Assembly: GCA_965223855.1 (NCBI GenBank)
Contig: CBDCXM010000009.1
Location: forward strand, 928,001 to 992,000
DNA: 64,000 nt
Direction of reading: 5' to 3'
Origin: Candidatus Multivoradales bacterium
GTDB taxonomy: Bacteria > Acidobacteriota > Thermoanaerobaculia > Multivoradales > JAHEKO01
Both the position numbers and the translations under genes were made by a program. Below, piece by piece: positions 20,656-36,067 of the stretch (position 1 is the first letter of the stretch; each line of letters starts with the position of its first letter). The notes beneath the pieces were generated by a model. It was not told where the DNA came from, did not search any database, and was given only the letters and a program-made list of their open reading frames with translations.

Positions 20656-21555
20656 TCAGGCGCGGTTGCGGATCCGGTAACGGAGCGCCAGACGCAGGTT
20701 GACGAACGACTCGAAACCGGCATCGCGCCCCGGGGGCCGTGCGACTTCGAGAGGGGTGAAGAAGAGCTCGGCCGCCGCCCGCCACCGGTCTCCCGCACGG
20801 GTGGTGACGCCGAGAGCCGCCGAGTAGGTGGTCCCGGACGCCGACAGGGTGCTGCGATCGACCAGTCCCCGGTACTCGGCGCGCACCTGGAAGTCGAGAT
20901 CGAGACGGTGAAGGGCGAGGGCGAGGTAGGGGGCGAGCCGGCGATCCGGCGTTGAGCGGCGCGACACCGTCGTCTCGAAGCTCAGGCTCTCGAGGTCCAT
21001 CGTGTCCGCAGACGGTGTCTCGCAGCCGAACTCGTTGGGGCCTTCGGCGATCTCCCGCGCCGAGCAGGTGATGTCGCCGTCGAACCGGCCGCGTTGCGCC
21101 ACGAGGCGGAAGGCGACCGGGAAGGCGCGCTGACGAAACGCCGCGCGACCGACGGCAAGCGCCACCAGCTCGGGCTCGATCCCGGAGATGTCGACCGGCG
21201 GCAGATAGCTCCCTTCGAGGCTCCACCCGCCGGGAAGGCCGACCGCGATCCGCGGGCGGCCGAAGACCGAAGTGCGATCGAAATCCTCCTCTTTGGTGCC
21301 GTCGAAACCGACCGTGCGCTCGGCCGCGGAGAGGGACGGCACCGAGTCGAGCTCGATCGCCAGCTCGACTGCGCCGGGAGGGAGCGGCTCACCGTCGTCG
21401 AGGCCGGTGAGCAGTCCGAGGCTGGCGGCGTACTGCATCGCCCACGACTCCGGGCGCTCGAAAGCAAGCGCCTCGTGGCCGGCGAGTACGACCTGTGCCG
21501 AGGCCGGCGAAGGCAGCAGGGCGCAGGCGACAAGAGCGAGCGTTCGCAGCCTCAC
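20656..21555 (-). CDS. Secreted/outer-membrane hypothetical protein
   Basis: Signal peptide; amphipathic beta strands, ends near LALRYR. Confidence 0.65.
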   Translation of the reverse strand: MRLRTLALVACALLPSPASAQVVLAGHEALAFERPESWAMQYAASLGLLTGLDDGEPLPPGAVELAIELDSVPSLSAAERTVGFDGTKEEDFDRTSVFGRPRIAVGLPGGWSLEGSYLPPVDISGIEPELVALAVGRAAFRQRAFPVAFRLVAQRGRFDGDITCSAREIAEGPNEFGCETPSADTMDLESLSFETTVSRRSTPDRRLAPYLALALHRLDLDFQVRAEYRGLVDRSTLSASGTTYSAALGVTTRAGDRWRAAAELFFTPLEVARPPGRDAGFESFVNLRLALRYRIRNRA

Positions 21556-22172
21556 GGTGTCGTGCGCGTGAGGGCGACGAAGCGCACCCGGTCGCTCGCT
21601 TCGAGTCGTTCGATGGCCGCCTCAGCCGTTTCCGACGGCAGCTTTAGCCGGTAGAGACCGAGGTCGTCGGGGCCGTCGATGATCTGCGCCTCGGCGTCGG
21701 TCAGCAGGCGGCGGATCTCCGCCTCGGTCGTCTGCTCGCTGAAGAGAATGTGCGCCACCCGCTCGCCGGGCGGCGTCTGCGCCGGTGCGTCGGAGAGGGT
21801 ACGGAAGGTCGGTTCGTGTGACGGTTCTTCGAGCGCCGGGCGCTGAGGCGCCAGCAGCCACGCCGCGCCGAGCGCCAGCAGCATGGTGGCGGCGGCGGCC
21901 AGCGGAGCCCATCGCGACGGATCCGCTCGTTGTCGCGAGGCTTCAGGGCCTTCGACGGCCATGCGCAGAGCGCGGACGCCGGACTCGACATCGAAGCCGG
22001 GGATGGGGGTCTGCTCGACCGCATCCTGAATCTCCTCGAGGTCCCTCAGCGCGCTGCGACAGGTGACGCAGGTGGCGGCGTGAGCGCGCATGTCCCTGGC
22101 CTCCTCGGGTTGCAGCGTGCCGTTGAGGTACCAGGGCAGCAGCGGCTCCCATCGTTCGTGGTGTGTCGTCAT
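21552..22172 (-). CDS. zf-HC2 anti-sigma factor
   Basis: LLPWYLNGTL...HAATCVTC, TM, FRTLS, C-terminal small ferredoxin-like domain. Confidence 0.88.
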   Translation of the reverse strand: MTTHHERWEPLLPWYLNGTLQPEEARDMRAHAATCVTCRSALRDLEEIQDAVEQTPIPGFDVESGVRALRMAVEGPEASRQRADPSRWAPLAAAATMLLALGAAWLLAPQRPALEEPSHEPTFRTLSDAPAQTPPGERVAHILFSEQTTEAEIRRLLTDAEAQIIDGPDDLGLYRLKLPSETAEAAIERLEASDRVRFVALTRTTP

Positions 22173-22179
22173 CGCGGGT

Positions 22180-22794
22180 CTAACTCCTCGGGTCCGTGGG
22201 CTCCTCGGGCGCGTGGGCTCCTCGGGCGCGCGTTGTTGCGGGCTCTTCGGCGCCACTCGCCTCGCGCGGCAGCAGGTCGCGGAGCCTGCGTCGGGCGTGG
22301 AACATCCGGGTCTTGACGGTGTTCTCGGGGCAGCCGACGATCTCGGCGATCTCGGCGTAGGAGTGGCCGAAGTAGTAGGTGAGTTCGACGACGGCGCGGT
22401 GCTCGGGGCTCAGCCGGCCGAGCGCGGCGAAGACTGCATGGCGCCGCTCCCGCTCCTCGACCCGTCGCTCGGGTCCGCCGTGCTCGACCTGATGGTCGGC
22501 TTCGACCTCGACCAGTGTCGGGGCCTTCGAGAGCTTGCCTACCGCGGAGAGGGCCTTGCGATAGGCGATGCCGAGGATCCAGGTCGACGGCTTCGATCGA
22601 CCGGCAAAGGTTCCCGCCTTCTGCCAGACGACGATCATGACGTCGTTCACCAGTTCCTCGACGATGCCGTGCCGTCCGACCATGCGATAGAGGAACGCGG
22701 TGACCGGTCCGTGGTAGCGCCGGTACAGCTCCTCCAGCGCCGCCCGGTTGCCGGCGGCGACGGAGCTGAGAAGCGCGCTGTCGGAGACTTCCAT
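22180..22794 (-). CDS. ECF RNA polymerase sigma factor
   Basis: ALEELYRRY, EELVNDVM, STWILGIAYRK, SYAEIAEIVGCPENTVKTRMFHAR. Confidence 0.93.
   Translation of the reverse strand: MEVSDSALLSSVAAGNRAALEELYRRYHGPVTAFLYRMVGRHGIVEELVNDVMIVVWQKAGTFAGRSKPSTWILGIAYRKALSAVGKLSKAPTLVEVEADHQVEHGGPERRVEERERRHAVFAALGRLSPEHRAVVELTYYFGHSYAEIAEIVGCPENTVKTRMFHARRRLRDLLPREASGAEEPATTRARGAHAPEEPTDPRS
22184..22234. repeat. 17-bp tandem repeat x3 at the sigma/anti-sigma junction
   Basis: CTCCTCGGGTCCGTGGG / CTCCTCGGGCGCGTGGG / CTCCTCGGGCGCGCGTT. Confidence 0.75.
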
Positions 22795-22824
22795 CGCTGG
22801 TTTCAGGGGGTCTGGTTCCCGGAG

Positions 22825-22854
22825 GTGAGTCTTCCAGGCGGTCGTAGCGGTTCA
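22825..22854 (-). promoter_or_regulatory. ECF autoregulatory promoter
   Basis: Minus strand TGAACC-N17-GACTCAC directly upstream of the ECF gene. Confidence 0.75.
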
Positions 22855-23334
22855 ATCCTCGGGAGCGTTCGGTCGGCACCCCGCTTCGGGCACCTTCAGT
22901 TGGCCGGACGCCCCGGAATTGATCCAGGCGATCATCGCGTCGATCTCCGCCTGGCCGAGGAACGGACCGCCACGCGGCATTCTCTCGCCGATGATGCCGG
23001 CGTCGCCCCGGAGTTTGTGGATCAGATAGCTCTGCTCGGCATCGCCGGGATCGACCCGCAGCAGCGCGGGCACCTCCGTCGACGGCACACCGACGAGGTT
23101 GCCGTGGGCGACGCCGGGTTCCAGGACGAGGCCGGCCTGGGCCGAAGCGGCGCTGTGACAGCCGCCGCGGGCGCAGGTCGGGGTGAAGATCTGCGCCTGG
23201 AAGTCGGAGAAGGTGACGGGCGGCCCGGCCGGCGGCTGCATCGGCGGCGCGGTCGGGGTACCGCCACCTCCTCCTCCACCGCAGCCGGCGGCGATCAGGG
23301 TGACGAGGGCGAGGACGGGTCGGTACGAGGTCAT
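22852..23334 (-). CDS. Lipoprotein with putative c-type cytochrome domain
   Basis: AAGGAGG RBS; lipobox IAAGC; CARGGCH (CX4CH); RMPRGG distal Met. Confidence 0.7.
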   Translation of the reverse strand: MTSYRPVLALVTLIAAGCGGGGGGGTPTAPPMQPPAGPPVTFSDFQAQIFTPTCARGGCHSAASAQAGLVLEPGVAHGNLVGVPSTEVPALLRVDPGDAEQSYLIHKLRGDAGIIGERMPRGGPFLGQAEIDAMIAWINSGASGQLKVPEAGCRPNAPED

Positions 23335-23353
23335 CGGCGTTCCTCCTTGCACG

Positions 23354-23417
23354 ATGTGTGGGCAGGCGTCGCACTCCGGTTCACTCTTGAACCTCGAAGC
23401 CGCATCCACCGACTCAC
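23354..23417. promoter_or_regulatory. Back-to-back ECF promoters
   Basis: GGTTCA-CTCT-TGAACC core; plus strand TGAACC-N17-GACTCAC, minus strand TGAACC-N17-CACACAT. Confidence 0.7.
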
Positions 23418-23436
23418 GGCGACAGGAGGCACCGAT

Positions 23437-23862
23437 ATGCGACTGATTCCCAGCCGAGCGTTCCCGTCCATCCTGATCCTCGTCTTCGCCGCAACGTCCA
23501 GCCTGCATTGCGGAGGAGGTGGCGGCGGAGGGGGCGCGACACCGACGGCCCCGGGCGGTCCGGTCGTCATCTCGATCGTCGACAACGCCTTCAGCCCGAG
23601 GTCGCCGGTGATCTCGCCCGGTCAGACGGTCCGCTGGGTCCTCGATGGCATGGATCCGACCCACACGACGACGGCGATGAACGGAAGCTGGGACAGCGGT
23701 TTCGTCTTCAACGCCCAGGGCAACTTCTACGAGCGCACCTTCCCCGCCACGGAGACGGGAAGAACGTTCGAGTACTCGTGCGTCACCCACCGCGACTCCG
23801 ACGCCATGCAGGGTTCGATCCGCGTGGGTGCCGACGCCCCCGACCCACAGGACGGCTATTGA
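23437..23862 (+). CDS. Cupredoxin (plastocyanin-like) lipoprotein
   Basis: AGGAGG RBS; Cys-Gly8 tether; FSP..GQTVRW..HTTT..YSCVTH.....M type-1 copper ligands. Confidence 0.8.
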   Translation: MRLIPSRAFPSILILVFAATSSLHCGGGGGGGGATPTAPGGPVVISIVDNAFSPRSPVISPGQTVRWVLDGMDPTHTTTAMNGSWDSGFVFNAQGNFYERTFPATETGRTFEYSCVTHRDSDAMQGSIRVGADAPDPQDGY

Positions 23863-23898
23863 GCGACTTGTTGTGGAGCGCTGTGCGACACTGAATCG

Positions 23899-24636
23899 AT
23901 GGTGCTGCGGAAGGCAACGGCGCGCTGGGCACGGGTCGGCTGGGCGCTGCTGCTCGGACTCCCGGCCGCGGTGTCGTCCCAGGAGAAGGGGGCCGAGCGG
24001 TTGCATGCCATGGTGACGCTGACCTCCGACTACGTTTACCGCGGGGTCTCGCAGTCCGACGGTGACCCGGCGATCCAGGGGGGCTTCGAGTTCGAGGCCG
24101 ACCGCGGCGGCTTCGTGGGCCTCTGGGCCTCCAGCGTCCAGTTCAGCGAGGCGACTCCGCGGGAAACTCCGCGAGACCTCGAGCTCGATCTCTACGCCGG
24201 CTGGCGCTTCGAGCTCGGCCCGGAGTGGAACGGAGAGGTGAGCTGGACGCGGCTCACCTACCCCGGTGCCGATACCTTTTTCGACTATGACTACGACGAG
24301 GCGCGCCTCTCCCTCACCTGGCGCGGCACCCTCGGCGCCACGGTCGGTTACCAGCCTGAGGGGCTCGGAAGCCCGACCTCGGCGTGGGTCTACGAAGTTC
24401 TCGCCGGTCGGCCGGTGAGACGGGGCACCGAGCTGGGAGCCGGCTACGGCTACCACGATCTCGAGGGCTTCTTCGGCGGCGGCTACGGGTACTGGAGCGC
24501 CGTCGTGTCCCACGGGCGAGGGCGTCTGCGCGCGGCGCTGACCTACGTCGGCACGTCGAGCGCCGCCGAGCGCCTCTGGGATCGGGAGCTGGTCGGCGAT
24601 CGGTGGGTCGTCAGCGTTTCGGCGGGGGTCCGTTGA
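23899..24636 (+). CDS. TorF-family putative porin
   Basis: TSDYVYRGVSQS..PAIQGG, GLWASSV, ELDLYAGW. Confidence 0.85.
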   Translation: MVLRKATARWARVGWALLLGLPAAVSSQEKGAERLHAMVTLTSDYVYRGVSQSDGDPAIQGGFEFEADRGGFVGLWASSVQFSEATPRETPRDLELDLYAGWRFELGPEWNGEVSWTRLTYPGADTFFDYDYDEARLSLTWRGTLGATVGYQPEGLGSPTSAWVYEVLAGRPVRRGTELGAGYGYHDLEGFFGGGYGYWSAVVSHGRGRLRAALTYVGTSSAAERLWDRELVGDRWVVSVSAGVR

Positions 24637-24637
24637 C

Positions 24638-25978
24638 GTGAAGCGAGGCAGGCACATCCCGCGGCGGTGGTGGATCGCAGCGGCGCTGACGATCGGCCTG
24701 AGCCGGGCGCTGTGCGCCGCGGAGGGCGCGGCCGGAGAGGGCGGTCCTCCCGACGCCCGCGAGCTCGAGCGCCACCTGCTCGTCACCCTGGCCGAGGCTC
24801 CCCGCCGACCTCTTCCGCCGGTCGGCTCCACACCGCGCGCCTACGGTGGTGCCCGGGGCTACAAGAGCTCCGCGCGCGCCCGTCGACTCGCCCGCCGGCT
24901 GGCGAAACGCCACGGGCTGACGCGGATCGACGGGTGGCCGATCGAGTCGCTCGACGTCTACTGCGTCGTGTACGAAGTCGCGGCCGACCGATCGATCGAC
25001 GAGGCGCTCTCCCGTCTGACGGCGGATCCGCTGGTCGAGAGCGTTCAGAGGATGGGTGTCTTCCGGGTGCTCGCCGAGCGGCACAACGACCCGCTGCTGG
25101 AGCTGCAGCACGGCTTCTCGGCGCTCGAGCTCGAGGAGGCGCATCGCTGGTCACGGGGCGACGGGGTCGAGGTCGCGGTGGTCGATACGGGGATCGACGT
25201 CACCCATCCCGAGTTTTCCTCCCGTGTCGTGTCGACCGAGAACTTCGTCGGAGATGCCGGGGCGCCGCTCGCCGACGTCCACGGCACCGCGGTGGCGGGA
25301 GTCATCGCCGCCGCGGCCGACAACGGCATCGGCATCGCCGGAGTCGCTCCGGCGGTGCGCCTTCTGGCGCTGCGCGCCTGCTGGCCCGAGGGGCGGGACA
25401 CGGCAGCGGCGCTTTGCAGCAGCTTCACGCTCGCCAAGGCGCTGAGCTACGTCGTCGAGCACCGTCCCGACGTCGTCAACCTGAGCCTGGCCGGCCCGCC
25501 CGACCCGCTGCTGGCGCGCCTGCTTGCGCGCGCCGTGGAGCGCGGCGTGCTGGTGGTCAGCGCGATGCCGGAGCGTGCCCTGCACGAGCCGCGGTTCCCG
25601 GCGACGGCCGACCGGGTGATCGCCGTCGGCACCGGGGTCGGCAAGGAGACCGACACGCACTCGAGCGACGCGCTTGCTGCGCTCCCCGCTTCGGTGCTCC
25701 GAGCCCCCGGAGATCGGATCCTCACGACCATGCCTGCCGGGGGCTACGACTTCCTCTCCGGGAGCTCGCTGGCGGCCGCTCACGTCACCGGGCTCATCGC
25801 TCTCCTCCTCGAGCAGGAGAGGCGACTCAGCTACGAGCGGGTGGTCGAGCTGCTGAGGACCAGCGATCCGGCGCGCCGCAGCGCGGTCAACGGCTGCCGC
25901 GCTTTGCAGCTGCTGAGCGCGAGGGTCGAGTGTCGGGAAGCTGACGGCACAGGCCCGACGGCGACCGGCGCCCGCTAG
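24638..25978 (+). CDS. S8 subtilisin-like peptidase
   Basis: VAVVDTG, HGTAVAG, SGSSLAAAHVTG catalytic triad. Confidence 0.92.
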   Translation: MKRGRHIPRRWWIAAALTIGLSRALCAAEGAAGEGGPPDARELERHLLVTLAEAPRRPLPPVGSTPRAYGGARGYKSSARARRLARRLAKRHGLTRIDGWPIESLDVYCVVYEVAADRSIDEALSRLTADPLVESVQRMGVFRVLAERHNDPLLELQHGFSALELEEAHRWSRGDGVEVAVVDTGIDVTHPEFSSRVVSTENFVGDAGAPLADVHGTAVAGVIAAAADNGIGIAGVAPAVRLLALRACWPEGRDTAAALCSSFTLAKALSYVVEHRPDVVNLSLAGPPDPLLARLLARAVERGVLVVSAMPERALHEPRFPATADRVIAVGTGVGKETDTHSSDALAALPASVLRAPGDRILTTMPAGGYDFLSGSSLAAAHVTGLIALLLEQERRLSYERVVELLRTSDPARRSAVNGCRALQLLSARVECREADGTGPTATGAR

Positions 25979-25992
25979 CCTGTTCTTTCCCG

Positions 25993-26334
25993 TCAGCCCG
26001 AGAGCCGGCCCGGCCCCATTCGTGTCGCCAGCAGCCAGAAGGCGAGCGACACCAGCGACAGGCTGACGCCGCCGGCCAGCAGTTGAGGCGCGCCGAGGCC
26101 GCTCGCCAGCGGCTCTCGCAGATGCCAGAAGATGAGTGCGCTCACCAGCGCCGCGAGACCCCAGTAGGGCAACAGCCAGCGACTTGCGCCACGGACGCGC
26201 CGCGGCGGCGTCTCGGCGGCGTCGAGGCGTGCGGCGAGCCGCTGCTCGAAACCGGGCCGCACGCGGGGTGTCGCGGTGTTCGCGAATGCGCTGCGCAGCT
26301 GCTGATCGACCGATGTCCGGGGTGTCTGCTTCAC
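25993..26334 (-). CDS. Small 2-TM protein, probable anti-sigma factor
   Basis: Coupled to the ECF stop; DQQLRSAF...PGFEQRL, then 2 TM. Confidence 0.65.
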   Translation of the reverse strand: MKQTPRTSVDQQLRSAFANTATPRVRPGFEQRLAARLDAAETPPRRVRGASRWLLPYWGLAALVSALIFWHLREPLASGLGAPQLLAGGVSLSLVSLAFWLLATRMGPGRLSG

Positions 26335-26900
26335 GGGTGTTCCTCCAGAGCGTTGCCGAGTCGCGCGCGTGCGCGATGCAGGCGGGCCTTGACGGTGCCG
26401 GGCCGCACCGAGTGGAGCGTGGCGATCTCGTCGATCGACTGTCCCTGCCAGTAGTGCAGCAGGATGGTGCTGCGCTGAGGTTCCCCGAGGGCGTTCACCG
26501 CCGCCAGCAGGTCGAGTCGACGCTCCCGCTCCTCACCGGGGCCGGCAAGCTGAGCGAGCGCCTCGTCTCCCAGGTGAGGGCGTTGGAAGCGGGCCCGACG
26601 GGCGACGTCGATCGCCCGTCGGCGGGTGATCGCGTAGAGCCAGGTCGAGAACCGGCTTTCCGACCGGAAGGTGGCCAGCTTGCGATGGACGAGCACGAAC
26701 ACCTCCTGTGCGACGTCCTCGGCCTCGGCGTCGAAGCCGGGGCCGAGGATCGAAGCGGCCAACCTGAAGACGCGATCCCGGTAGCGGGTGACGAGGGCGA
26801 GGAACGCTTCGTCGCTACCCTCCGCGACACAGCGCCGGACGAGATCCTCGTCGCTCGGCAGGCTGTCGGCGGTCATCGCTGCTGGCAGGGTCGTGGGCAT
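26331..26900 (-). CDS. ECF RNA polymerase sigma factor (start 26900 or 26876)
   Basis: DEDLVRR, AEDVAQEVF, FSTWLYAIT, SIDEIA..TVKARLHRAR. Confidence 0.92.
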   Translation of the reverse strand: MPTTLPAAMTADSLPSDEDLVRRCVAEGSDEAFLALVTRYRDRVFRLAASILGPGFDAEAEDVAQEVFVLVHRKLATFRSESRFSTWLYAITRRRAIDVARRARFQRPHLGDEALAQLAGPGEERERRLDLLAAVNALGEPQRSTILLHYWQGQSIDEIATLHSVRPGTVKARLHRARARLGNALEEHP

Positions 26901-26929
26901 CGCTCGGGGGAGCCGTCCGTCCGGGCCGG

Positions 26930-27331
26930 TCAGTCTCCCGGGAACAGGCGTCTGGCGACGAGGGAGAACAGCAGCAGGCCGAAGCCGGCCATCATCGGCA
27001 CCAGCCCGATCGACCAGAGCTTCTCGAGCTCGGGGTCGGCGATGATGAGGAAGCCGACGAAGAGCCCGGTGCCGCCGAACATCAGCAGCAGGCCGAGGCC
27101 GAAGGCGATCAGCCGGACCCACTGGCTCTGCCGGCGGTAGGCGTCCTGCGGGGTCAGGGTTTCAGTGGTCATGGAGGGGTCTCCTTTCGGTTGCGGAGTC
27201 TCGCCGTGCTCGATCGCCGCCAGCCGCTCGCGATGTTCCATGAGCCGGGTGCGGTAGGCCTGCTGGCGCACCAGCAGCCAGACCCCGGCGACGAGGGCAG
27301 CGGTGAGCAGGATGGTGAGTTCGATCGGCAT
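26930..27331 (-). CDS. Membrane protein (DUF6249-like)
   Basis: TM, HRERLAAIEHG, two more TM with GLVPMMAGFGLL. Confidence 0.7.
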   Translation of the reverse strand: MPIELTILLTAALVAGVWLLVRQQAYRTRLMEHRERLAAIEHGETPQPKGDPSMTTETLTPQDAYRRQSQWVRLIAFGLGLLLMFGGTGLFVGFLIIADPELEKLWSIGLVPMMAGFGLLLFSLVARRLFPGD

Positions 27332-27358
27332 GAGAGGGCTCCTGTGGTCTTCGTTCTT

Positions 27359-27387
27359 GAGACGAGGTGACCGGACCGAAAGGTTGC
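27359..27387 (-). promoter_or_regulatory. ECF promoter of the DUF6249-ECF-anti-sigma operon
   Basis: Minus strand GCAACC-N17-CGTCTC; the -35 (CGCAACCT) is tandemly duplicated. Confidence 0.6.
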
Positions 27388-27486
27388 GCAGGTTGCGCGG
27401 GGATTCTGTCGGCGAGCGGCCGCACGATTGCGGACAGCTGTGTCAGCTCTGACAGCTGTTCTGGCGGCCCGGAAGGGCCTTCGCGA

Positions 27487-28350
27487 TCAGCCGGCGGCTC
27501 TCAGGCGCTCGAGCAGAGCGGAGTTGAGTCGAGTGTACTCGTCCCTCAGCTCGTCGCCCTCGGTGGCAGCCCCGGCGAGCGAGCGCTCGGCGGCGTCCAC
27601 CGCGGCCTCGATGTCACCGAGACCCTCTCGAATCAGGGCCAGCCGGTAGAGCATGCCGATGTGGCCGGGGGTCGACTCGAGCGCCTTCTCCATCAGCTCG
27701 GCGGCGCGAGCGAGGTCGAGACCGCTCTCGAAGTAGAACATCGCGGCGTGGAAGTAGGGCTTGCGTCCGTCCCCGGCGAGAGCCTCCTCGAGCCGTGGCA
27801 CCACGGTGGTCGCCAGGTCGACGGTCACCGGCACCTCGAGCCGCGTCCGCGCCCATGCCAGGTAGAGGAGTGCCCGATCGCGTCCGACATCGTCGAAGCC
27901 GATCGTGAAGCTTTCGATGGGGAGCGGCAGTTCGCTCGGAGTCACGACGATGCGTGCGACGTCTCGGGCCGGGTCGTAGGCGTACGACCCCCATTGCGAC
28001 CGACTCGACTGGAGGATGACCTCCCAGCGATAAGGGCCGGGGATGGTGAAGAGTTCGTAGCTTCCCGCCTCTACGGCGACGCCGCCGAACGAGAACGCCG
28101 TGCTCGCCGTGAGGCTGGTGGCGGCGTCCGCTCCGGTCCGCCAGATCCGTCCGAACGGCACGAGCGCGCCGAAGATCTCCCGCCCCCTTACCGACGGCCG
28201 ACCGTAGTTGATCTCGAAACGGGTCGAAGCCACCTGCTGGTGGATCTCGGCGCGAGGATTCGTCGCCGGCAACGGGAAGTCGGCGGCCGCGACCGTGAGT
28301 GGCTGCACGCACAGTGCGAAAGCGAGCGAGTGCCAGGAAGGTGATTTCAT
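27487..28350 (-). CDS. DUF2911-domain protein (second paralog)
   Basis: INYGRPSVRGREIFGALVPFGRIWRTGAD, AGSYELFTIP, WGSYAYDP; TPR-like tail. Confidence 0.85.
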   Translation of the reverse strand: MKSPSWHSLAFALCVQPLTVAAADFPLPATNPRAEIHQQVASTRFEINYGRPSVRGREIFGALVPFGRIWRTGADAATSLTASTAFSFGGVAVEAGSYELFTIPGPYRWEVILQSSRSQWGSYAYDPARDVARIVVTPSELPLPIESFTIGFDDVGRDRALLYLAWARTRLEVPVTVDLATTVVPRLEEALAGDGRKPYFHAAMFYFESGLDLARAAELMEKALESTPGHIGMLYRLALIREGLGDIEAAVDAAERSLAGAATEGDELRDEYTRLNSALLERLRAAG

Positions 28351-28470
28351 CTCGAGCTCGTTTCTCCAGGACCGAAGCGGCGAGTTCTGAGGATGTCCAA
28401 CCCCCTGCCGGGTCGCCTTGTTCCCTTCGATCCAGCCGCTTCGCCTGCCCCGGGGGTGCGCGAAGAACCC

Positions 28471-29295
28471 TCAGTCGGATCGGGAGTCGTCGACGAACCA
28501 GCTCAGAGCGCTCCAGCGCTCGCTGGCTTCGTTGCCGTCCATCAGCGCCACCACTCTGCCGGTCGTGGCGTAGACGGCCCGCCAGTAGCGGCCGGGCTCG
28601 CGAAAGTCGATCGTCGGCGGGTCGATCCCCGGCTGCTGACCGTGGATCTCCTCGATCTGCCCGAACACCTCTCCCTCGAAGATCGTCGTGAAGAGCACTT
28701 CGGCGCTGTGCTCGACGCGCGTACCCCGGCTGTAGACACGGACCGGCTTGCCGGCGCGGATCGCCGCGATCAGCTCGGCCTTCGAGCCCTCGACCGGCTG
28801 GCCGTTCTCGTCATGACGGTAGGCGAGTCTCCAGCCGCCGGACATCTCTGCCGTCCGCGGCTCGACGATCAGGAAGACGGCGGTCGTGTCGCCGACGTTG
28901 AGCACCTCGTGCCAGTCGACACCGTCACTCGCCCAGGAGAGGCCGGTGGCGAGGTCGACTTCGCGCACACCCTCTGCATCGCGCATCTGCATGCGCCCGC
29001 CGGCCACGGTGTAGCCGAAGTGCGGAGCGTGGAAGTGGCGCTCGTGTCCGACTCCCGGAGGGAAGTTGCAGAGCAGAGCGCGGTGCCGGTCGTCCTCGGA
29101 GAGAAGCTCGCACACAGCGTCGTCCTGCCAACCGGCGGCCAACGGGTCGGGCAGCTCGGCGGCCGCGCCCGAGGGGGCGAGGCTCGTGACGACGAGGCTT
29201 GCGGTGACGAGGCCTGGGGCGACGAAGACGGCGCCGAGTCCCCGCAGGGTGCTCGCGAAGTGGGAGGCGCTCTCGGCGCCGGCGGGTTCGTTCAT
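28471..29295 (-). CDS. Secreted cupin-domain fusion protein
   Basis: FPPGVGHERHFHAPHFGY...WHEVLNVG cupin plus ~115-aa unknown C-terminal domain. Confidence 0.7.
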   Translation of the reverse strand: MNEPAGAESASHFASTLRGLGAVFVAPGLVTASLVVTSLAPSGAAAELPDPLAAGWQDDAVCELLSEDDRHRALLCNFPPGVGHERHFHAPHFGYTVAGGRMQMRDAEGVREVDLATGLSWASDGVDWHEVLNVGDTTAVFLIVEPRTAEMSGGWRLAYRHDENGQPVEGSKAELIAAIRAGKPVRVYSRGTRVEHSAEVLFTTIFEGEVFGQIEEIHGQQPGIDPPTIDFREPGRYWRAVYATTGRVVALMDGNEASERWSALSWFVDDSRSD

Positions 29296-29339
29296 GGTGG
29301 CTCTGCTCCGATGTGGGGTGTCGGGAGGGACCGGCGCCC

Positions 29340-31340
29340 TCAATCGCCGCTGCCGCGTTGCCAGCTCGTCCAGCCGATCTCGCCTTCGCCCGGCGGCTTG
29401 ACCCAGTGGGCGTCGGGGAGTTCGAGCCTCGTGCGCGCCTGTCCGCGCGGCATGGAGAAACGCTCGGTCGTGAAGGTGTGTCCGTAGGTGTGCACCGAGA
29501 TCAGATGCACCGTGCGAGGTTGTCCGGCGACGAGGATCGCCGGCAGCTCGCCCGGCGGCGAGTACGGCCGGGCGGGGATCGAGATCTGAAGCGAGACCAG
29601 TCGACCCGGCTCGAAGGCGCCGGGCTGGGGGCTCTCACCGCCGGTCATGGCGTCGCGCAGGGAACCGACGAGGCAGCGCGGCGTGCCGTCGGCGCAGGGG
29701 GCGAGTCCGAGGCTCCCGCCGTCGGACGGCTGGAACAGCCGCCGCACGACGACCAGCTCCGGCCCGCGAGCACGGAACCAGCGCGGCGAGAGGGTTCGCA
29801 GCTCCTTGCGATCGACCGAGGTCATCGCCCGCGCGTGCCAGCTCGCCCCCGGCTCGAACAGCCGTCGACTGTGGAAGATCCAGCCGTCGGCGCTCTCGAG
29901 AACACCCGGGTCGACCCCGTCCAGCCTCTCGACGTCGTGGCGGAGGCCGCGGATCGGCCGCCGTCCGTGCCAGGCGGGCTCGGGAACGTCCATCCGCTCG
30001 GCGAGAACGACGTGGTTGTCGCTACGAGTCATCGGTCGGCGCAGGAAGCGCTCAGCGAGGTCGCGGGTGTGCGGGATCGACTGCCTGTAGACGTAGTTCC
30101 AGCCCGGTGGCACGACGAGCGCCGCCAGTGCCAGCCACGCTCCGGTACCTGCCCGGCCTCGCCATCGCGGGGGAACGAGGTGGCGCACGCCACGCCAGAG
30201 AGCGCGGAGCGCGAACGCCAGACAGAGGCAGGTGACCGGCAGGATCGGCAGCACGTTGTTCGGCTTGAAGTGGTTGGTCTGAGTGACGTACACCAACAGC
30301 CAGATCGGCGCGAACGAAAGCAGTCCGAGGGTGGCGGCCGCGCGGGCTCGCGTCGCGCTGGCGGCGGGCCGTCGTAGCACCGGGAGCGCCGCGATCAGCA
30401 GGAAGAGGGCGCCGCCGCCGGCGAGCCAGGCGCCGGGGGGCGAGTGGACCCAGCGGCCGGCAAAGAGCGCCAGGGAGTCGGCGGTCACGTCCCAGCGGCT
30501 GGTGCCGTGGAGGAAGGCGCCGTACTCGTACTCGCTCTTGAGCCGCTCCATGTAGCCGGGGTAGAGGCGCCAGTGGGGGTTGAAGAGCAGGAAGGAGAGC
30601 GCCGATACCGTCGCCGCGACGGCGAGGTTGCGCCACCGGCGACGGTCGCCCGGTCCGAGGAGCACGGTCCCCAGGGCGAGGGGAAAGGCTGCGACCACGC
30701 CGGTGAGCTTGGCGCTGGCGGCGGCCGCGATCGCGAGACCGGTCACGGCGCCCCATCTCCACGACGCCGTCTCGAGCGTGCGGACGGTGGCGTAGAGCGC
30801 CGCGACGATGGCGGTGATGAGCATCGCGTCCGGCTTGAAGTAGCCCGACATGTGGAGGTGCCACGGCAGGAAGGTGAGGAGCGCCGCCGCCAGCAGGCCG
30901 ACGTCGGGTCCGCGCAGACGTCGTCCCAGCAGGTAGAGGAGCCCGATGCCGGCGACCGCCAGCAGCGCCGTCCAAGCTCTGGCCGCGCGATAGAGCGCGG
31001 GTTGCGGGGCTCCGTCTTCCAGTGCGTCCCAGCGCGCATCGCCGGTGCGTTCGTGCAGCCGCTCGAGGGCGAGCGCAAGTCCGGAGACCGGGGCGAAGAA
31101 GAGCGGCGAGGCGTAGAAGCCCCTGGGGGTGAGCGTCGTCCCCTTCACCGCCAGGGCATGCACGTTCTCGAACGCGTAGCGCTCGTCCCAGAAGCGGTTG
31201 TGGTGAGTGCCGCCCCAGCCGTAGGCGACCCGCAGTGCCAGGCCGACGAGGAGCAGCAGGGCCAGCAGCCAGCGATGACCGCGGCCGGCTGCCGCTGGTG
31301 GAGGGCTTGGGAACGGGCGGGCTGGGGCGTCGCCGCTCAT
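29340..31340 (-). CDS. GT-C glycosyltransferase (family 39/ArnT-like)
   Basis: LALRV..FWDE, multi-TM, FKPD, AKLTG. Confidence 0.8.
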   Translation of the reverse strand: MSGDAPARPFPSPPPAAAGRGHRWLLALLLLVGLALRVAYGWGGTHHNRFWDERYAFENVHALAVKGTTLTPRGFYASPLFFAPVSGLALALERLHERTGDARWDALEDGAPQPALYRAARAWTALLAVAGIGLLYLLGRRLRGPDVGLLAAALLTFLPWHLHMSGYFKPDAMLITAIVAALYATVRTLETASWRWGAVTGLAIAAAASAKLTGVVAAFPLALGTVLLGPGDRRRWRNLAVAATVSALSFLLFNPHWRLYPGYMERLKSEYEYGAFLHGTSRWDVTADSLALFAGRWVHSPPGAWLAGGGALFLLIAALPVLRRPAASATRARAAATLGLLSFAPIWLLVYVTQTNHFKPNNVLPILPVTCLCLAFALRALWRGVRHLVPPRWRGRAGTGAWLALAALVVPPGWNYVYRQSIPHTRDLAERFLRRPMTRSDNHVVLAERMDVPEPAWHGRRPIRGLRHDVERLDGVDPGVLESADGWIFHSRRLFEPGASWHARAMTSVDRKELRTLSPRWFRARGPELVVVRRLFQPSDGGSLGLAPCADGTPRCLVGSLRDAMTGGESPQPGAFEPGRLVSLQISIPARPYSPPGELPAILVAGQPRTVHLISVHTYGHTFTTERFSMPRGQARTRLELPDAHWVKPPGEGEIGWTSWQRGSGD

Positions 31341-31341
31341 C

Positions 31342-32184
31342 TCAGGTCCGCAACGATCTCAGGAGGCGGAGATTACCGGCGTCGCCGACGCCGTCTTTGG
31401 GGGTCTCGAGCACCATCGGAACATCGCCCAAGCGGCGATCGGAGACGATGCGTGCGAGCGCCGCTCGACCGAGATGACCGGCGCCGATGTGCTCGTGCCG
31501 GTCGCGACGCGAGCCGAACGGCTGCTTCGAGTCGTTGAGGTGGACCGCTCGCACCTGGTCGAGGCCGAGGCGACGGTCAATCTCGCCGATCGTCGCTTCG
31601 AGCCCCTCCGCCTCGTGGATCGGATAGCCGGCCGCGAACAGGTGGCAGGTGTCGAGGCACACGCCCAGCCGCTCCGGTCGACGCACGGCGTCGTAGATCC
31701 CCTCCAGTTCCTCGAGGTCGGCGCCGAGGTTCGAGCCCTGACCGGCGGTGGTCTCGAGGAGGAGGCGGGTGGCGAATCCCGCGGTGCGTTCGAACACCCG
31801 ATCGAGGAAGGCCCCGACCCGCCGCACGCCGGTGGCGACGCCGGCCCCGACATGGCTCCCGGGGTGGAGCACGACGCCTGCAAGGCCGAGCCGCTCGGCT
31901 CGCTGGAGCTCGTCGATCAGCGCGACGATCGAGCGTTCGCGGGTGGCCGGCTCGGGGGACGCCGGGTTGACGAGGTAGCTGCCGTGCGAGATCAGCCGGT
32001 GCGGCGGCCAACGGCGCGCCAGCTTGCGGAAGCGGTCGACGTCGCTCGCGGCGAGGGGCTTCGCCCGCCACTGGTTCTGATTGCGGGTGAAGAGCTGCAC
32101 CGCGCCGCAATCGAGCTCGGCGGCCCGTTCGAGGGCACGCCACACCCCGCCCGCGGCCGAGGTGTGCGCTCCGAGATTGTCCAA
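31342..32184 (-). CDS. nfo: Endonuclease IV (AP endonuclease)
   Basis: GAHTSAAGG, QLFTRN, HGSYLVN, HPGSH, LETTAGQG, CLDTCHLFAAGY, HLNDSK, DRHEHIG, ETP; TTG start ~32184. Confidence 0.95.
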   Translation of the reverse strand: MDNLGAHTSAAGGVWRALERAAELDCGAVQLFTRNQNQWRAKPLAASDVDRFRKLARRWPPHRLISHGSYLVNPASPEPATRERSIVALIDELQRAERLGLAGVVLHPGSHVGAGVATGVRRVGAFLDRVFERTAGFATRLLLETTAGQGSNLGADLEELEGIYDAVRRPERLGVCLDTCHLFAAGYPIHEAEGLEATIGEIDRRLGLDQVRAVHLNDSKQPFGSRRDRHEHIGAGHLGRAALARIVSDRRLGDVPMVLETPKDGVGDAGNLRLLRSLRT

Positions 32185-32201
32185 CGGCGGGCCGCGTCTC
32201 G

Positions 32202-34529
32202 TCAGATGTAGCCGAGGCTGCGCAGCCGCTCGAGCTCGGCGGCGTCCATGCCGGCGGTCGGGTCGACCCGGTCGAGACGCGCCGCCTCCGCCTGGCGCCG
32301 CCAGTTGTCGAGCACCGAGGAAAGACGCTCGACGACCTCGGGATGCTCGGCAGCGACGTCGATCTGGTTGAGGGGGTCGTCGAGGTGACGATAGAGGGCG
32401 TGACGGACGTCGCCGTCGTCGACTTCGTGGCGGATCAGCTTCCACTCCCCCAGCTGAATCGCGGTAGATGTGTGCCCTCGCAGGGTCATCAGCATCTCGG
32501 TGATGGCTGGCCGGTTCCACAGCGGCGCCTCGGTGCCGTCGAAGAGTGGCGCCAGCGAAGCCCCCTGTGCACGCTCCGGTACGGGCAGGCCGCTGAGCTC
32601 GAGCATCGTCGGCATGAGGTCGATCGTCTGCACCGTCGGCTCGACGACGACGCCGGCGGGAAGGCGCCCCGGCTGCCACAGGAGCATCGGCACCCGGTTC
32701 AGCTCGCCGTAGACGGTGTGGCCGTGGAAGTGAGCGTCGTGCTCGAGGAACTCGGTGCCGTGATCGGCGACCACCGCGACCAGTACGCGGCCGCCGAGTT
32801 CGAGCTCGTCGAGGCGCGAGAAGAGCTGCTCGAGTGCGACGTCCATGCCGCGGATCGAGCTGTCGTAGCCGTCGAGCTCGTGGGCGACGAAACTCTCTGG
32901 GTCGAGACCCGCCGCCTCGAGCTCCTCGCGCAGCGGCATACCGAAGCGCTGCATCAGCTCGTGGTGGGTGATGTGGGGCCGCACCTGCTCGATCCACCCG
33001 TCGAGCCGGTCCATGTCGCCCGGCTCGGAGAAGATCTCCTCGTCTTCGGGCAACGGCCGGTAGGGGCTGTGGGGGTCGGCGACGTGGAGCAGGGCGAAGA
33101 AGGGCGTGTCGTGCCGCTGCTCGATCCAGGGCAGCAGTCGGCCCACGTGCTCGCGGGCGGTCTTCGGGCCGAGGTCGTCGTCGACGGACGCTCCTTCGTG
33201 CATCACCTCGTACCCCTGATGGAGGGCCGTCAGCCGGCCGACGAACGGGATGGTGGTGAGAGCCAGCGTGGCGTAGCCGGCTTCGCGGTAGACCTCGGCG
33301 AGGGTCTGGGCCGCCGCCGGCAGCCGGTCGGGGATGTCGGCCACCGTGTGGGTGCTCGGATAGAGCGAGGTCTGGATCGCCGGCACCGAGACCTTGGTCC
33401 AGGTCGCCTGGGAGACGGTGTTGGCGAACCGCACTCCTTCGTCCGCCAGCCGGGTGAGGGTCGGTGCCGTCTCCCGCTCGTAGCCGTACGAGGCCAGATG
33501 GTCGGCGCGCAGCGTGTCGGTGAGAATCAGGATGACGCCGGCGAGCTCGTCGGGAGCGGTGCGCGAGCGCACCACCGGATTGCCCCAGACGCCGATCGTC
33601 CCCTCGTCCCCGGAGAGCGACAGGGCGATCTCGACCGCCGCGCCGTCGAGCCCGTCGAGCTCGAGCCACAGCTCGTTCCACGCTTCCGGTTCGGTGATCG
33701 ACTGCTCGATCACGCGCGGTTCGCCGCTCTCCGGGATGACCTCGACACGGAAGTCGACGGCGGTCGCCCCGGTCGAGCCGACCGCGACCTCGAGCGCCGG
33801 CGCCGCCGGCAGTACGGCCTGGTAGCGCAGCGTCTCGGGTGCCCGCGCGACGATCGACTCGCGGTAGATCTCCGACATCCCCTTCCAGCTCACTCCCGAA
33901 GGGATCGACGCGAAGTGCTCGCCCTCGAAGACCAGCTTCACCGACTCGATCTCGAAGCGGGCTCCCGCGGTGTCGGACGGCGAGATCAGCAGGTGGTGGG
34001 CGGAGTCGGCGGTGACGGTGCGCGGCGGACGCAGGACGTAGGTCTGCATCTCCTCGCCCGTGCGGAGCGGAGTGCGGAACTCGCCGAACGGATTGCCGAG
34101 CGCGCGCCCGAGGACCAGCGGGTCGCCGTCGAAACGCACGGTCAGATGGTCGCCGTCGGAGACCTTCGCCCGGACCTCCACCGAATGGACCCTCTCGCCG
34201 TCGGGGACGTCGGTCGGTCGCCGGGCGACCACGAAGGCCTCCTCGCCGGTGACGCTGCCGCGCAGCACCCCTTCGACGACCTCGAGTCCTTCGATCCCGC
34301 GCTCGGCGCGGAAGTCGTTCGCGCCGTCGGCGAAGGTCCAGCTCGTCGCCTCGTAGCCGGCGGGCGCCGGTGGCGGGCTGGACTCGACCACGGAGGAGGC
34401 GAAGAGGTCGACGAGGCGGACCGGCTGCCGTGAAGGCTCTTCGGGCGCCGAACAGGCTGCGAACACGACCGCAGCGGCGCCGACCGGAATGCTGGCGAGG
34501 CGCGTCGGAGACGCGGAGAGGGGGTGCAT
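32202..34529 (-). CDS. Sulfatase-like (alkaline phosphatase superfamily) lipoprotein
   Basis: Lipobox FAAC; DTLRADHL, DPHSPY, ADHG..FLEH..HG; lacks the CxPxR motif. Confidence 0.85.
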   Translation of the reverse strand: MHPLSASPTRLASIPVGAAAVVFAACSAPEEPSRQPVRLVDLFASSVVESSPPPAPAGYEATSWTFADGANDFRAERGIEGLEVVEGVLRGSVTGEEAFVVARRPTDVPDGERVHSVEVRAKVSDGDHLTVRFDGDPLVLGRALGNPFGEFRTPLRTGEEMQTYVLRPPRTVTADSAHHLLISPSDTAGARFEIESVKLVFEGEHFASIPSGVSWKGMSEIYRESIVARAPETLRYQAVLPAAPALEVAVGSTGATAVDFRVEVIPESGEPRVIEQSITEPEAWNELWLELDGLDGAAVEIALSLSGDEGTIGVWGNPVVRSRTAPDELAGVILILTDTLRADHLASYGYERETAPTLTRLADEGVRFANTVSQATWTKVSVPAIQTSLYPSTHTVADIPDRLPAAAQTLAEVYREAGYATLALTTIPFVGRLTALHQGYEVMHEGASVDDDLGPKTAREHVGRLLPWIEQRHDTPFFALLHVADPHSPYRPLPEDEEIFSEPGDMDRLDGWIEQVRPHITHHELMQRFGMPLREELEAAGLDPESFVAHELDGYDSSIRGMDVALEQLFSRLDELELGGRVLVAVVADHGTEFLEHDAHFHGHTVYGELNRVPMLLWQPGRLPAGVVVEPTVQTIDLMPTMLELSGLPVPERAQGASLAPLFDGTEAPLWNRPAITEMLMTLRGHTSTAIQLGEWKLIRHEVDDGDVRHALYRHLDDPLNQIDVAAEHPEVVERLSSVLDNWRRQAEAARLDRVDPTAGMDAAELERLRSLGYI

Positions 34530-34656
34530 CGCGAGATTCTAGCTCGTCCCTCTCGCGCCGCTGTGCCCCGGTAGGTCGCAGGTCGCTGGAGATAGGAGGC
34601 TTCCGCTCTACGTCGAGGAGCGCAGTACGGAAACGAAGCGGCCCGGCGATTCGTGT

Positions 34657-34685
34657 TGAACCCGGTCGCCCCGGAGGCGGACTCA
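34657..34685 (+). promoter_or_regulatory. ECF promoter matching the 22.8/23.4 kb motif
   Basis: TGAACC(34657)-N17-GACTCA(34680). Confidence 0.65.
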
Positions 34686-34689
34686 AGGT

Positions 34690-34800
34690 TCGACAGCGGT
34701 CGTTCATCCGGAGCCGGAGACGACTTCGTAGATCAGATGAAAACCGCTGGAAGCCGTCGGGTTGGTGGTTGATTGGGCCTCCACCGACCCGGCGGCTTCC
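34690..34800 (+). ncRNA. Candidate ECF-dependent structured sRNA or leader
   Basis: Starts after the promoter; stem CAGCGGT-cg-TTCATC/GATGAA-a-ACCGCTG, then a 20-bp stem at 34749-34800. Confidence 0.45.
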
Positions 34801-34867
34801 CCTGCCCTGGCCGCGCCTCGTTTTCCTTCTCGCTGACGGGCCGTTCGCGGCCTGCTAGCGTCGCGCC

Positions 34868-35986
34868 ATGTCGAGCATGACGCCTGTCGCCGTACGATGC
34901 CGCCGGCTCGCAAGACGGTTCCCCGCGGGGGTCTTGCTGCTGGCATCGTTGCTCTCCGGGAGGACGCTCACCGCACAGCCGATCGATCGACTCGGCGCCA
35001 TCGGTGACAGCCTGACCGACGAGTACCTCGAGGACAGCTACGACTACGCTCGTGCCTGGACCGAGATCCTGGTCGATGAACGGGGAATCACCTTCGGTCC
35101 CACCGCCGTCCAGGCGGGGCAGCCGGGTGGCACCTGGGGCGAGCCGCGACGGCGGGGGTTCCAGGACAACTGGGCACGCTCCGGCGCCACCACCAACGAC
35201 GCGTTGAACACGGGCCAGCACACCGGCGTCGCGGGCGGAGCACAGAGTCGCGACGTCTCGCACGTGGTGATCTACATCGGCGGCAACGACTTCTCGCCGT
35301 GGGCCGGCGCCTACGACGAGATCTACGATGGCGCGTGGAGCCAGGGTCAGATCAACGCCTGGATCGCCGGCCGGGTCGGCAACGTCGGCACGATCCTCGA
35401 CACCGTCGGGGCGACGCCGGCGAAGATCGTGCTGCTTGGCATCCTCGACTTCTCGGTCATGCCGTGGCTTCATCAGGGGGCGTACACCGATCCGGCGCGG
35501 CGCGAGGCGGTCGCCGACGCGGTCTCGCAGCTCGGCGACGGCCTGCGGGTGCTCGCTCAGCAGCGCCAGCTCGTGTTCGTGGATGTCTTCGCCTTCGGGC
35601 GCGCCGTCTTCGGCGACAACTTCAACCTGCGGCCGACGCTCACGATCGGCAACGTCGCCATCGACCTCGACGAAGTCGACAGCTCGACCGGCGCCATCCC
35701 GACCGCTGGCTTCGTCGATGACGGTGTGCACCCCAACACCGTGCTGCAGGCGCTGTGGGCGAATCTCATCCTCACCGCCCTCAATCAGGCCTACGACACC
35801 GGTGTCCCGCTCTTCTCCGAGCAACAGATGCTGGCGACCGCGGGAATCGCCTACGGCGGCGTCGACACCCTCGACGACGAGATCGGCCCGCTGTCGGAGT
35901 TCGTCGCCGACTACACCGGACGGACGATCTTCGCCGACGGCTTCGAGGGTGGCGACACCTCGGCGTGGTCGGCGACCGTGCCCTGA
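34868..35986 (+). CDS. Secreted SGNH/GDSL hydrolase with IFADGFE tail
   Basis: GDSLTD, GGNDF, DGVHP; ends IFADGFEGGDTSAWSATVP. Confidence 0.88.
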   Translation: MSSMTPVAVRCRRLARRFPAGVLLLASLLSGRTLTAQPIDRLGAIGDSLTDEYLEDSYDYARAWTEILVDERGITFGPTAVQAGQPGGTWGEPRRRGFQDNWARSGATTNDALNTGQHTGVAGGAQSRDVSHVVIYIGGNDFSPWAGAYDEIYDGAWSQGQINAWIAGRVGNVGTILDTVGATPAKIVLLGILDFSVMPWLHQGAYTDPARREAVADAVSQLGDGLRVLAQQRQLVFVDVFAFGRAVFGDNFNLRPTLTIGNVAIDLDEVDSSTGAIPTAGFVDDGVHPNTVLQALWANLILTALNQAYDTGVPLFSEQQMLATAGIAYGGVDTLDDEIGPLSEFVADYTGRTIFADGFEGGDTSAWSATVP

Positions 35987-36067
35987 TCTTCGCGCCCGGA
36001 GACCGGAATCGCTTCCCCCTTCCCGGGTCGTCGCCATTTCGACACGCCGACGCGATAAGTTTCGCGG

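Follow-up and report, generated by a model that had tools for sequence, protein, structure and literature searches.

Small RNAs (sRNAs) under the control of alternative sigma factors have been described in several bacteria, and those closest to the locus analyzed here are the sigmaE-dependent envelope-stress sRNAs, which include MicA, RybB, and MicL from E. coli, MicV from Vibrio and FoxJ from Fusobacterium (PMC4102768; PMC6694218; PMC11005410). Outside of the enterobacteria, the ECF-controlled sRNA Pos19 belongs to the RpoE regulon of Rhodobacter sphaeroides (PMC5036791), and the general stress network of Caulobacter includes an sRNA (PMC5869019). As presented in these sources, the last two RNAs were shown by experiment and illustrate the existence of small RNAs in ECF regulons of other phyla. 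A different precedent is found in Pseudomonas aeruginosa, where the rhlI leader-derived sRNA is reported as a 5′ UTR-derived sRNA (PMC6786874).

Here we describe a candidate small non-coding transcript from a window of 64,000 nt (G000:C9:928001-992000; 68% G+C), which is part of a genome of 4.52 Mb in nine contigs, hereafter G000. Like the sigmaE-dependent sRNAs, as far as they are characterized in the reports cited, the candidate would be transcribed from an ECF-type promoter and belong to a small stress regulon, in a genome that contains gene hfq as well as rho. Unlike them, it has no sequence or Rfam relationship to these RNAs, lacks a U tail and is not conserved in relatives, and the corresponding sigma factor is not an RpoE equivalog. 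Likewise, it is unrelated in sequence to Pos19 and to the sRNA from Caulobacter and, whereas these were demonstrated experimentally according to their descriptions, the RNA from G000 is a prediction, for which the weight of the case is modest. With the rhlI leader-derived sRNA, as it is outlined in its source, the candidate shares the possible origin of a short, stable RNA from the 5′ portion of a longer leader. New in this analysis are a homolog of one of the hairpins of the candidate, a leaderless signature in front of the adjacent SGNH hydrolase gene, and the absence of the promoter and the hairpins from the relatives searched.

Genome-Wide Specificity of the ECF-Type Promoter Motif

The candidate is preceded by an exact copy of the motif TGAACC-N17-GACTCA, which occurs twice more in the window, in both cases close to genes from an ECF sigma factor cluster. 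The features involved are as follows:

34657-34685, plus strand: putative ECF-type promoter, with −35 TGAACC at 34657-34662, a 17-nt spacer and −10 GACTCA at 34680-34685
22826-22854, minus strand: exact copy 1 of TGAACC-N17-GACTCA, predicted autoregulatory ECF promoter, 31 nt from the ATG of the sigma factor gene
23388-23416, plus strand: exact copy 2 of the motif, predicted to drive the cupredoxin-like gene, 20 nt from its start
22180-22794, minus strand: ECF sigma factor gene (Pfam Sigma70_r2, Sigma70_r4_2, and Sigma70_ECF; NCBIfam sigma70-ECF superfamily)
21552-22256, minus strand: zf-HC2 anti-sigma factor gene (Pfam zf-HC2, 2.2e-7; NCBIfam anti-sigma match below cut-off)
23437-23859: cupredoxin-like gene, with an AGGAGG Shine-Dalgarno sequence and a halocyanin-domain match below cut-off

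Searches of both strands of the nine contigs (4,520,844 bases) revealed that these three are the only exact copies in the genome; additionally, all three are immediately preceded by a T. The exact hexamer pair was absent at each of 11 other spacings (12–16 and 18–23 nt) across the whole genome, and matches with one mismatch numbered 14 at the 17-nt spacing vs. 2–10 at the others. From this one-mismatch background and the base composition, we estimate that chance would yield about 0.16 exact matches per genome. In shuffled versions of the window, matches with up to one mismatch averaged 0.20, and three or more were found in none of 100 shuffles. It is unlikely, though possible, that the third copy is a stray one; chance is made less likely by the intergenic position of this copy, by the T in front of it, which the other two also have, and by its location 12 kb from the sigma factor gene. 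The preliminary description of this DNA had pointed to a third strong copy of the motif, which is indeed an exact match, and the genome-wide count against chance that it proposed is in favor of specificity, with three exact matches vs. about 0.16 expected and none at the 11 other spacings.

Among the 44 other genomes from the family, 14 were found to have an ortholog of the ECF sigma factor. The relaxed form TGAAC[CT]-N17/18-nACnnA was found no more than 260 nt upstream of the gene in all 15 orthologous ECF loci (those from the 14 other genomes plus that from G000); one of these loci, L028, comes from an unpublished genome (G005), and its exclusion leaves 14 of 14. Because this relaxed form precedes the ECF gene in every one of the 15 orthologous loci, the motif is very probably the sigma factor's own, autoregulatory promoter. 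A strict scan of the motif in genomes G002, G004, G010, and G050 retrieved matches at the ECF loci only, plus one match in G002 that was within control levels and, as judged from the sequences compared, the third site has been added in G000 only. The type of promoter assigned in the preliminary description is therefore sustained by the presence of an ECF sigma factor gene with the same motif, by the specificity of this motif in sequence and spacing, and by its occurrence in the 15 orthologous loci. The sigma factor itself was not assigned as an RpoE equivalog, its NCBIfam matches to this type being under the cut-offs.

The ECF cluster (20668-25933) contains the sigma factor and zf-HC2 anti-sigma factor genes together with a 299-aa ORF and, divergently, a 160-aa ORF, the cupredoxin/halocyanin-like gene and a gene for a Gcw_chp outer-membrane protein, and it is collinear with that from G002; a signal from the envelope related to copper or redox state may be suspected.

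Transcription from the site at 34657-34685 is predicted to start near 34692 and would depend on the ECF sigma factor; overall, we consider it likely that this promoter is functional. It differs from the other two ECF promoters in its distance to a start codon, of 182 nt vs. 20 and 31 nt.

Two Hairpins Downstream of the Promoter Motif

The third copy of the motif is within a gap of 338 bp (34530-34867), flanked by a sulfatase ORF on the minus strand (32202-34529) and by a GDSL/SGNH hydrolase ORF on the plus strand. Downstream of the motif we identified the following features:

34694-34749, plus strand: hairpin 1, with an imperfect stem and an unpaired stretch that is relatively rich in A/U (−22.7 kcal/mol, z −2.98)
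34749-34800, plus strand: hairpin 2, with a contiguous stem of 20 bp (34749-34768 paired with 34781-34800) and a 12-nt loop
34831-34861, plus strand: promoter-like region of the SGNH gene, with a −35-like CTGACG at 34833-34838, a 17-nt spacer and −10 TAGCGT at 34856-34861
34868-35986, plus strand: gene for a secreted GDSL/SGNH hydrolase, a possible read-through target (Pfam Lipase_GDSL, 5.2e-11; signal-peptide-like N-terminus)

The 111 nt from 34692 to 34802 fold on the plus strand into the two hairpins with −63.8 kcal/mol (z −6.51), and none of 200 shuffles was as good. The contribution of the two hairpins is uneven: hairpin 1 alone (34692-34749) was equaled by 1 of 200 shuffles, does not show strand preference (−24.7 kcal/mol on the minus strand) and had no homolog in G000 or in the 40 relatives searched, and its modeled fold appears only modestly better than those of shuffled sequences. 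Hairpin 2, in turn, folds with −43.1 kcal/mol on the plus strand, which includes two G-U pairs, vs. −33.3 kcal/mol on the minus strand, where it is weaker because these two pairs turn into C-A mismatches. Only 12 contiguous stems of at least 18 bp with loops of 3–14 nt were found in the whole genome.

The 20-bp stem and 12-nt loop of hairpin 2 exceed the textbook form of an intrinsic terminator. There is no U tract 3′ of this hairpin, and efficient intrinsic termination at this position is thus doubtful. Nevertheless, this absence says little, because U tracts are rare in G000 after strong gene-end hairpins: at least four U in the following 10 nt were found in 8% of strong hairpins downstream of genes, vs. 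7% in the upstream control, a statistic that rests on a crude gene set. Two gene sets were obtained by crude gene calling based on GC3, with a coverage of 77 and 84% of the genome, and the counts derived from them are approximate. These measurements agree well with the preliminary description, which had reported a gap of around 340 bp with two stem-loops directly after the motif, G-U pairs in the second of them favoring the plus strand (by about 10 kcal/mol according to our data) and no U tract after the last stem.

A Homolog of Hairpin 2 Past the Stop Codon of Another Gene

A model built solely from the window copy of hairpin 2 detected one other match in the genome, with 51.6 bits and a rough E-value of 2e-8:

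G000:C9:845044-845095, minus strand: homolog of hairpin 2 (copy 2), with the same 20-bp stem and 12-nt loop, and included among the 12 long stems

The loops of both copies are nearly identical and their alignment keeps the 20 pairs, of which 13 are invariant, three show wobble changes (to or from G-U) and four show compensatory changes; conversely, identity in the sequences flanking the two copies is at about chance level. Copy 2 is located in a convergent gap, in sense orientation, 37 nt past the stop codon of a gene for a small secreted protein; it folds around 10 kcal/mol better on the transcribed strand, which contains all the G-U pairs. Neither a U tract at copy 2 nor an ECF motif upstream of it was found. 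Both copies thus share with intrinsic (Rho-independent) terminators a G+C-rich stem-loop, placed in copy 2 at 37 nt past a stop codon, and differ from them in the absence of the U tract. Since the sole homolog is just past the stop codon of another gene, we read hairpin 2 as a putative RNA-level transcript-end hairpin that was copied once.

The gene preceding copy 2 is the second of two tandem paralogous genes for small secreted proteins (L030:1634-3258, corresponding to G000:C9:845133-846757, minus strand), whose products are around 52% identical over 130 residues. Only this second gene has the homolog of hairpin 2 and a C-terminal tag that is described below; the tandem genes were not found in four congeners.

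A Leaderless Signature in Front of the SGNH Hydrolase Gene

The SGNH gene can start no earlier than 34868, because there is an in-frame stop codon at 34856. There is no Shine-Dalgarno sequence upstream of this ATG; the −10 TAGCGT is six bases before it, and the spacer contains a small third hairpin (34831-34860; −19.8 kcal/mol). The deduced product did not have Pfam matches other than Lipase_GDSL, nor any NCBIfam match, and scans of metagenome contigs and of genome contigs with this protein retrieved one distant locus each, with 48 and 44% identity, respectively.

Of the genes in G000, 1666 have a free upstream region; in 94 of these, the sequence TANNNT starts at position −12 relative to the start codon, compared to around eight genes at other offsets. 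This peak is not a mere artefact of stop codons, because the other in-frame offsets give from 3 to 36 genes. The genes with this signature define the leaderless consensus G-n-TAG(a/g)(a/c)T-N6-start (ATG/GTG), which does not include a clear −35, and the sequence GcTAGCGT-N6-ATG from the SGNH gene agrees with the leaderless set at eight of eight consensus positions. Many other genes from G000 show neither a Shine-Dalgarno peak nor the leaderless signature. In the congener G004, the SGNH ortholog is located around 30 nt after a pepF-like gene and its pre-ATG stretch is very similar to that from G000; the contexts of the orthologs from G002 and G016 differ from those in G000 and G004. The SGNH gene thus probably has its own leaderless promoter and, if so, the module formed by the ECF promoter and the hairpins would be a G000-specific insertion upstream of it. 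The divergent sulfatase gene also carries a leaderless signature, TAGAAT-N6-ATG (34536-34541, minus strand), which is supplied by the end of a dispersed repeat.

Conservation of the Locus and Neighboring Repeat

A DNA search with the 338-bp gap did not retrieve the promoter and the hairpins from any of 40 relatives; a 31-nt match in G018 was rejected as a chance match, since it is inside a coding region. Similarly, the hairpin 2 model (R1) had no matches in 44 genomes of the family or in 150 genomes of the order, and the three SGNH ortholog loci from G002, G004, and G016 contain neither the ECF motif nor the hairpins. Both the ECF cluster and the SGNH gene are syntenic with G002, but the intervening 9 kb are not (region 26000-34900 is not collinear).

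The gap also contains, at 34531-34650, one of 26 copies of a dispersed repeat of around 115–130 nt, which ends at around 34650, 5′ of the promoter. A variant of the locus, present in contigs from sequencing runs X1, X2, and X4, has positions 34547-34650 replaced by 48 other letters and keeps 34651-34811 with a single difference; because this variant lacks the repeat and retains the following sequence, the promoter-hairpin module is outside the 26-copy repeat. A search of sequencing runs found the locus in DNA contigs from four of them and in no RNA run; in these contigs the hairpin region did not show informative variation. These contigs are not independent support, because the runs belong to one study, whose material is perhaps the assembly's own source sample. 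The copies of the repeat are intergenic, appear in every gene context and in both orientations, and are present or absent among population variants. We also considered that the hairpins could themselves be a dispersed repeat (REP or MITE-like), which was ruled out because the hairpin 2 part exists in only two copies.

Comparison with Described RNA Classes

Comparison of the region 33500-36000 with Rfam, allowing E-values up to 10, did not identify any family; the matches to F6 (23.6 bits vs. a gathering score of 46, E-value 0.34) and npcTB_6715 were sub-threshold and we read them as noise. The Rfam comparison suggested in the preliminary description was consequently negative, with F6 as the best match. 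With respect to the features of sigmaE-type sRNAs, the candidate has a 3′ hairpin without the U tract that would complete it, and conservation, including that of a seed, was not observed in the DNA of the 40 relatives or with the hairpin 2 model in the 44 family and 150 order genomes. A duplex-energy scan of the stretch 34720-34748 against 3085 start regions gave a best z of −4.2, which is an ordinary extreme for that number of regions. The parallel previously drawn with MicA and RybB is no more than an analogy, as there is neither a sequence or family relationship nor a terminator U tail. The broader proposal, that of an ECF-dependent sRNA or structured leader, is well supported in its half concerning the ECF promoter, whereas the U tail, an Rfam match and conservation in relatives are all absent.

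Hairpin 2 has the G+C-rich stem and not the U tract of an intrinsic terminator, and no alternative terminator/anti-terminator folds were found, both the minimum-energy and the centroid structures keeping hairpin 2. A riboswitch or attenuator leader is not supported, in view of this single fold, of the absence of the leader from the SGNH orthologs compared and of the lack of an Rfam match. The only small ORFs that begin within the RNA, after the predicted transcription start, of 11 codons at 34738 and of 24 codons at 34762, were rejected because neither has a ribosome-binding site. A Rho site 3′ of hairpin 2 was also dropped, as C-richness in this region is weak (16 C vs. 11 G in 39 nt).

Possible Roles of the ECF-Type Promoter and the Hairpins

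The model that we tentatively prefer, which we hold at somewhat short of an even chance, is that transcription is driven by the ECF sigma factor and that the initial ~110 nt give rise to a discrete small RNA with its 3′ end at hairpin 2, past which some read-through may occur. According to this model, the site at 34657-34685 would be recognized as a promoter by the ECF sigma factor, the gene for which is 12 kb distant: upon release of this factor from its anti-sigma factor, RNA polymerase would start near 34692 on the plus strand, and hairpins 1 and 2, the second of them very stable, would form in the first ~110 nt. Hairpin 2 may determine where this stable RNA, induced by the ECF sigma factor, has its 3′ end: the polymerase could stop there or, once read-through RNA has been cleaved, the hairpin could block 3′ exonucleases; both this 3′ end and any action of the RNA in trans are predictions. 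Some polymerases may continue into the SGNH gene, which would be otherwise served by its leaderless-type promoter.

The plainest competitor is that the ECF promoter serves the SGNH gene as a second promoter that can be induced, and that the structured leader of around 176 nt only stabilizes or tunes the mRNA, with no separate role as an RNA. This is quite possible, if on balance doubtful. The promoter faces the SGNH gene, whose ATG is 182 nt away, a secreted hydrolase of the GDSL/SGNH type could plausibly be a target in envelope stress, and read-through is to be expected from a hairpin without a U tract; moreover, many genes in G000 have neither a Shine-Dalgarno sequence nor the leaderless signature, so that an internal start on an mRNA may be used without the former. 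However, the SGNH ATG lacks a Shine-Dalgarno sequence and is directly past hairpin 3, the leaderless signature fits a transcript starting at the ATG itself, the orthologs from G002, G004, and G016 do without such a promoter or leader, and the homolog of hairpin 2 is at a 3′ end and not in a leader. The location of this homolog at the 3′ end of a gene and the leaderless-type promoter of the SGNH gene tilt the interpretation toward a separate short transcript. Hence, we rank the discrete RNA of ~110 nt slightly above a plain long leader, because of the 3′-end homolog, the separate leaderless promoter, the lack of a Shine-Dalgarno sequence and the short leaders at the other ECF promoters. An extension of this preferred model, that the RNA is recently born, with an ECF promoter joined to a duplicated 3′-end hairpin in a strain-specific mosaic and the resulting ~110-nt sRNA acting in trans on envelope mRNAs, appears unlikely.

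A comparably low probability is given to a fortuitous or neutral origin, by which the motif would have arisen by chance or rearrangement in a strain-specific mosaic and the hairpins would be relics, such as a displaced 3′-end hairpin. It retains this standing because there is no conservation beyond G000, and it is consistent with an element unique to G000 among the genomes searched, with the lack of collinearity with G002 of region 26000-34900, with an adjoining mobile repeat that is polymorphic in the population and with the ~0.16 exact matches per genome attributable to chance. It does not easily explain, in contrast, an exact, T-preceded and intergenic match with the sole spacing in use and 12 kb from the sigma factor gene, nor a hairpin 2 that keeps 20 of 20 pairs and in which G-U pairs are confined to the transcribed strand. 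Finally, the tandem layout, with the ECF promoter 170 nt upstream of the leaderless-type promoter, would allow for transcriptional interference, whereby ECF transcription would occlude the SGNH promoter and yield a poorly translated, leadered mRNA, lowering the output of hydrolase; this is inferred from the layout only, requires read-through of hairpin 2, and we deem it very improbable.

If the discrete RNA is real, it would add an uncultured, high-G+C lineage to those in which an ECF sigma factor has an sRNA arm, and this arm would have been put together, in a single species, from a promoter and a transcript-end hairpin that had been copied; were it also recently born, it would constitute a datable example of a sigma regulon gaining an RNA arm. 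Regardless of the RNA, the promoter motif of this ECF family is now defined across 15 genomes, and the wide use of leaderless promoters in G000 helps to place gene starts in this lineage.

Other Repeated Sequences in G000

The SGNH hydrolase (at 35925-35986 in the window) is one of around 79 ORFs from G000 that share a C-terminal peptide, approximately (I/V)F-x-DGFESGDTSAWS-x-T-(V/I/L)-P-stop, which also ends the product of the gene preceding copy 2 of hairpin 2. Metagenome contigs over the DNA encoding this tag had a depth of ~480 vs. ~8. A literature search with the core word of the tag did not find anything relevant; it resembles a tag for sorting or docking that lacks a membrane helix and may be undescribed.

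Perfect palindromes, near-identical and of 37–38 nt, form intergenic arrays at G000:C9:1981176-1981571, with a period of ~180 nt, and at C9:2762279-2762616, with a period of ~100–200 nt.
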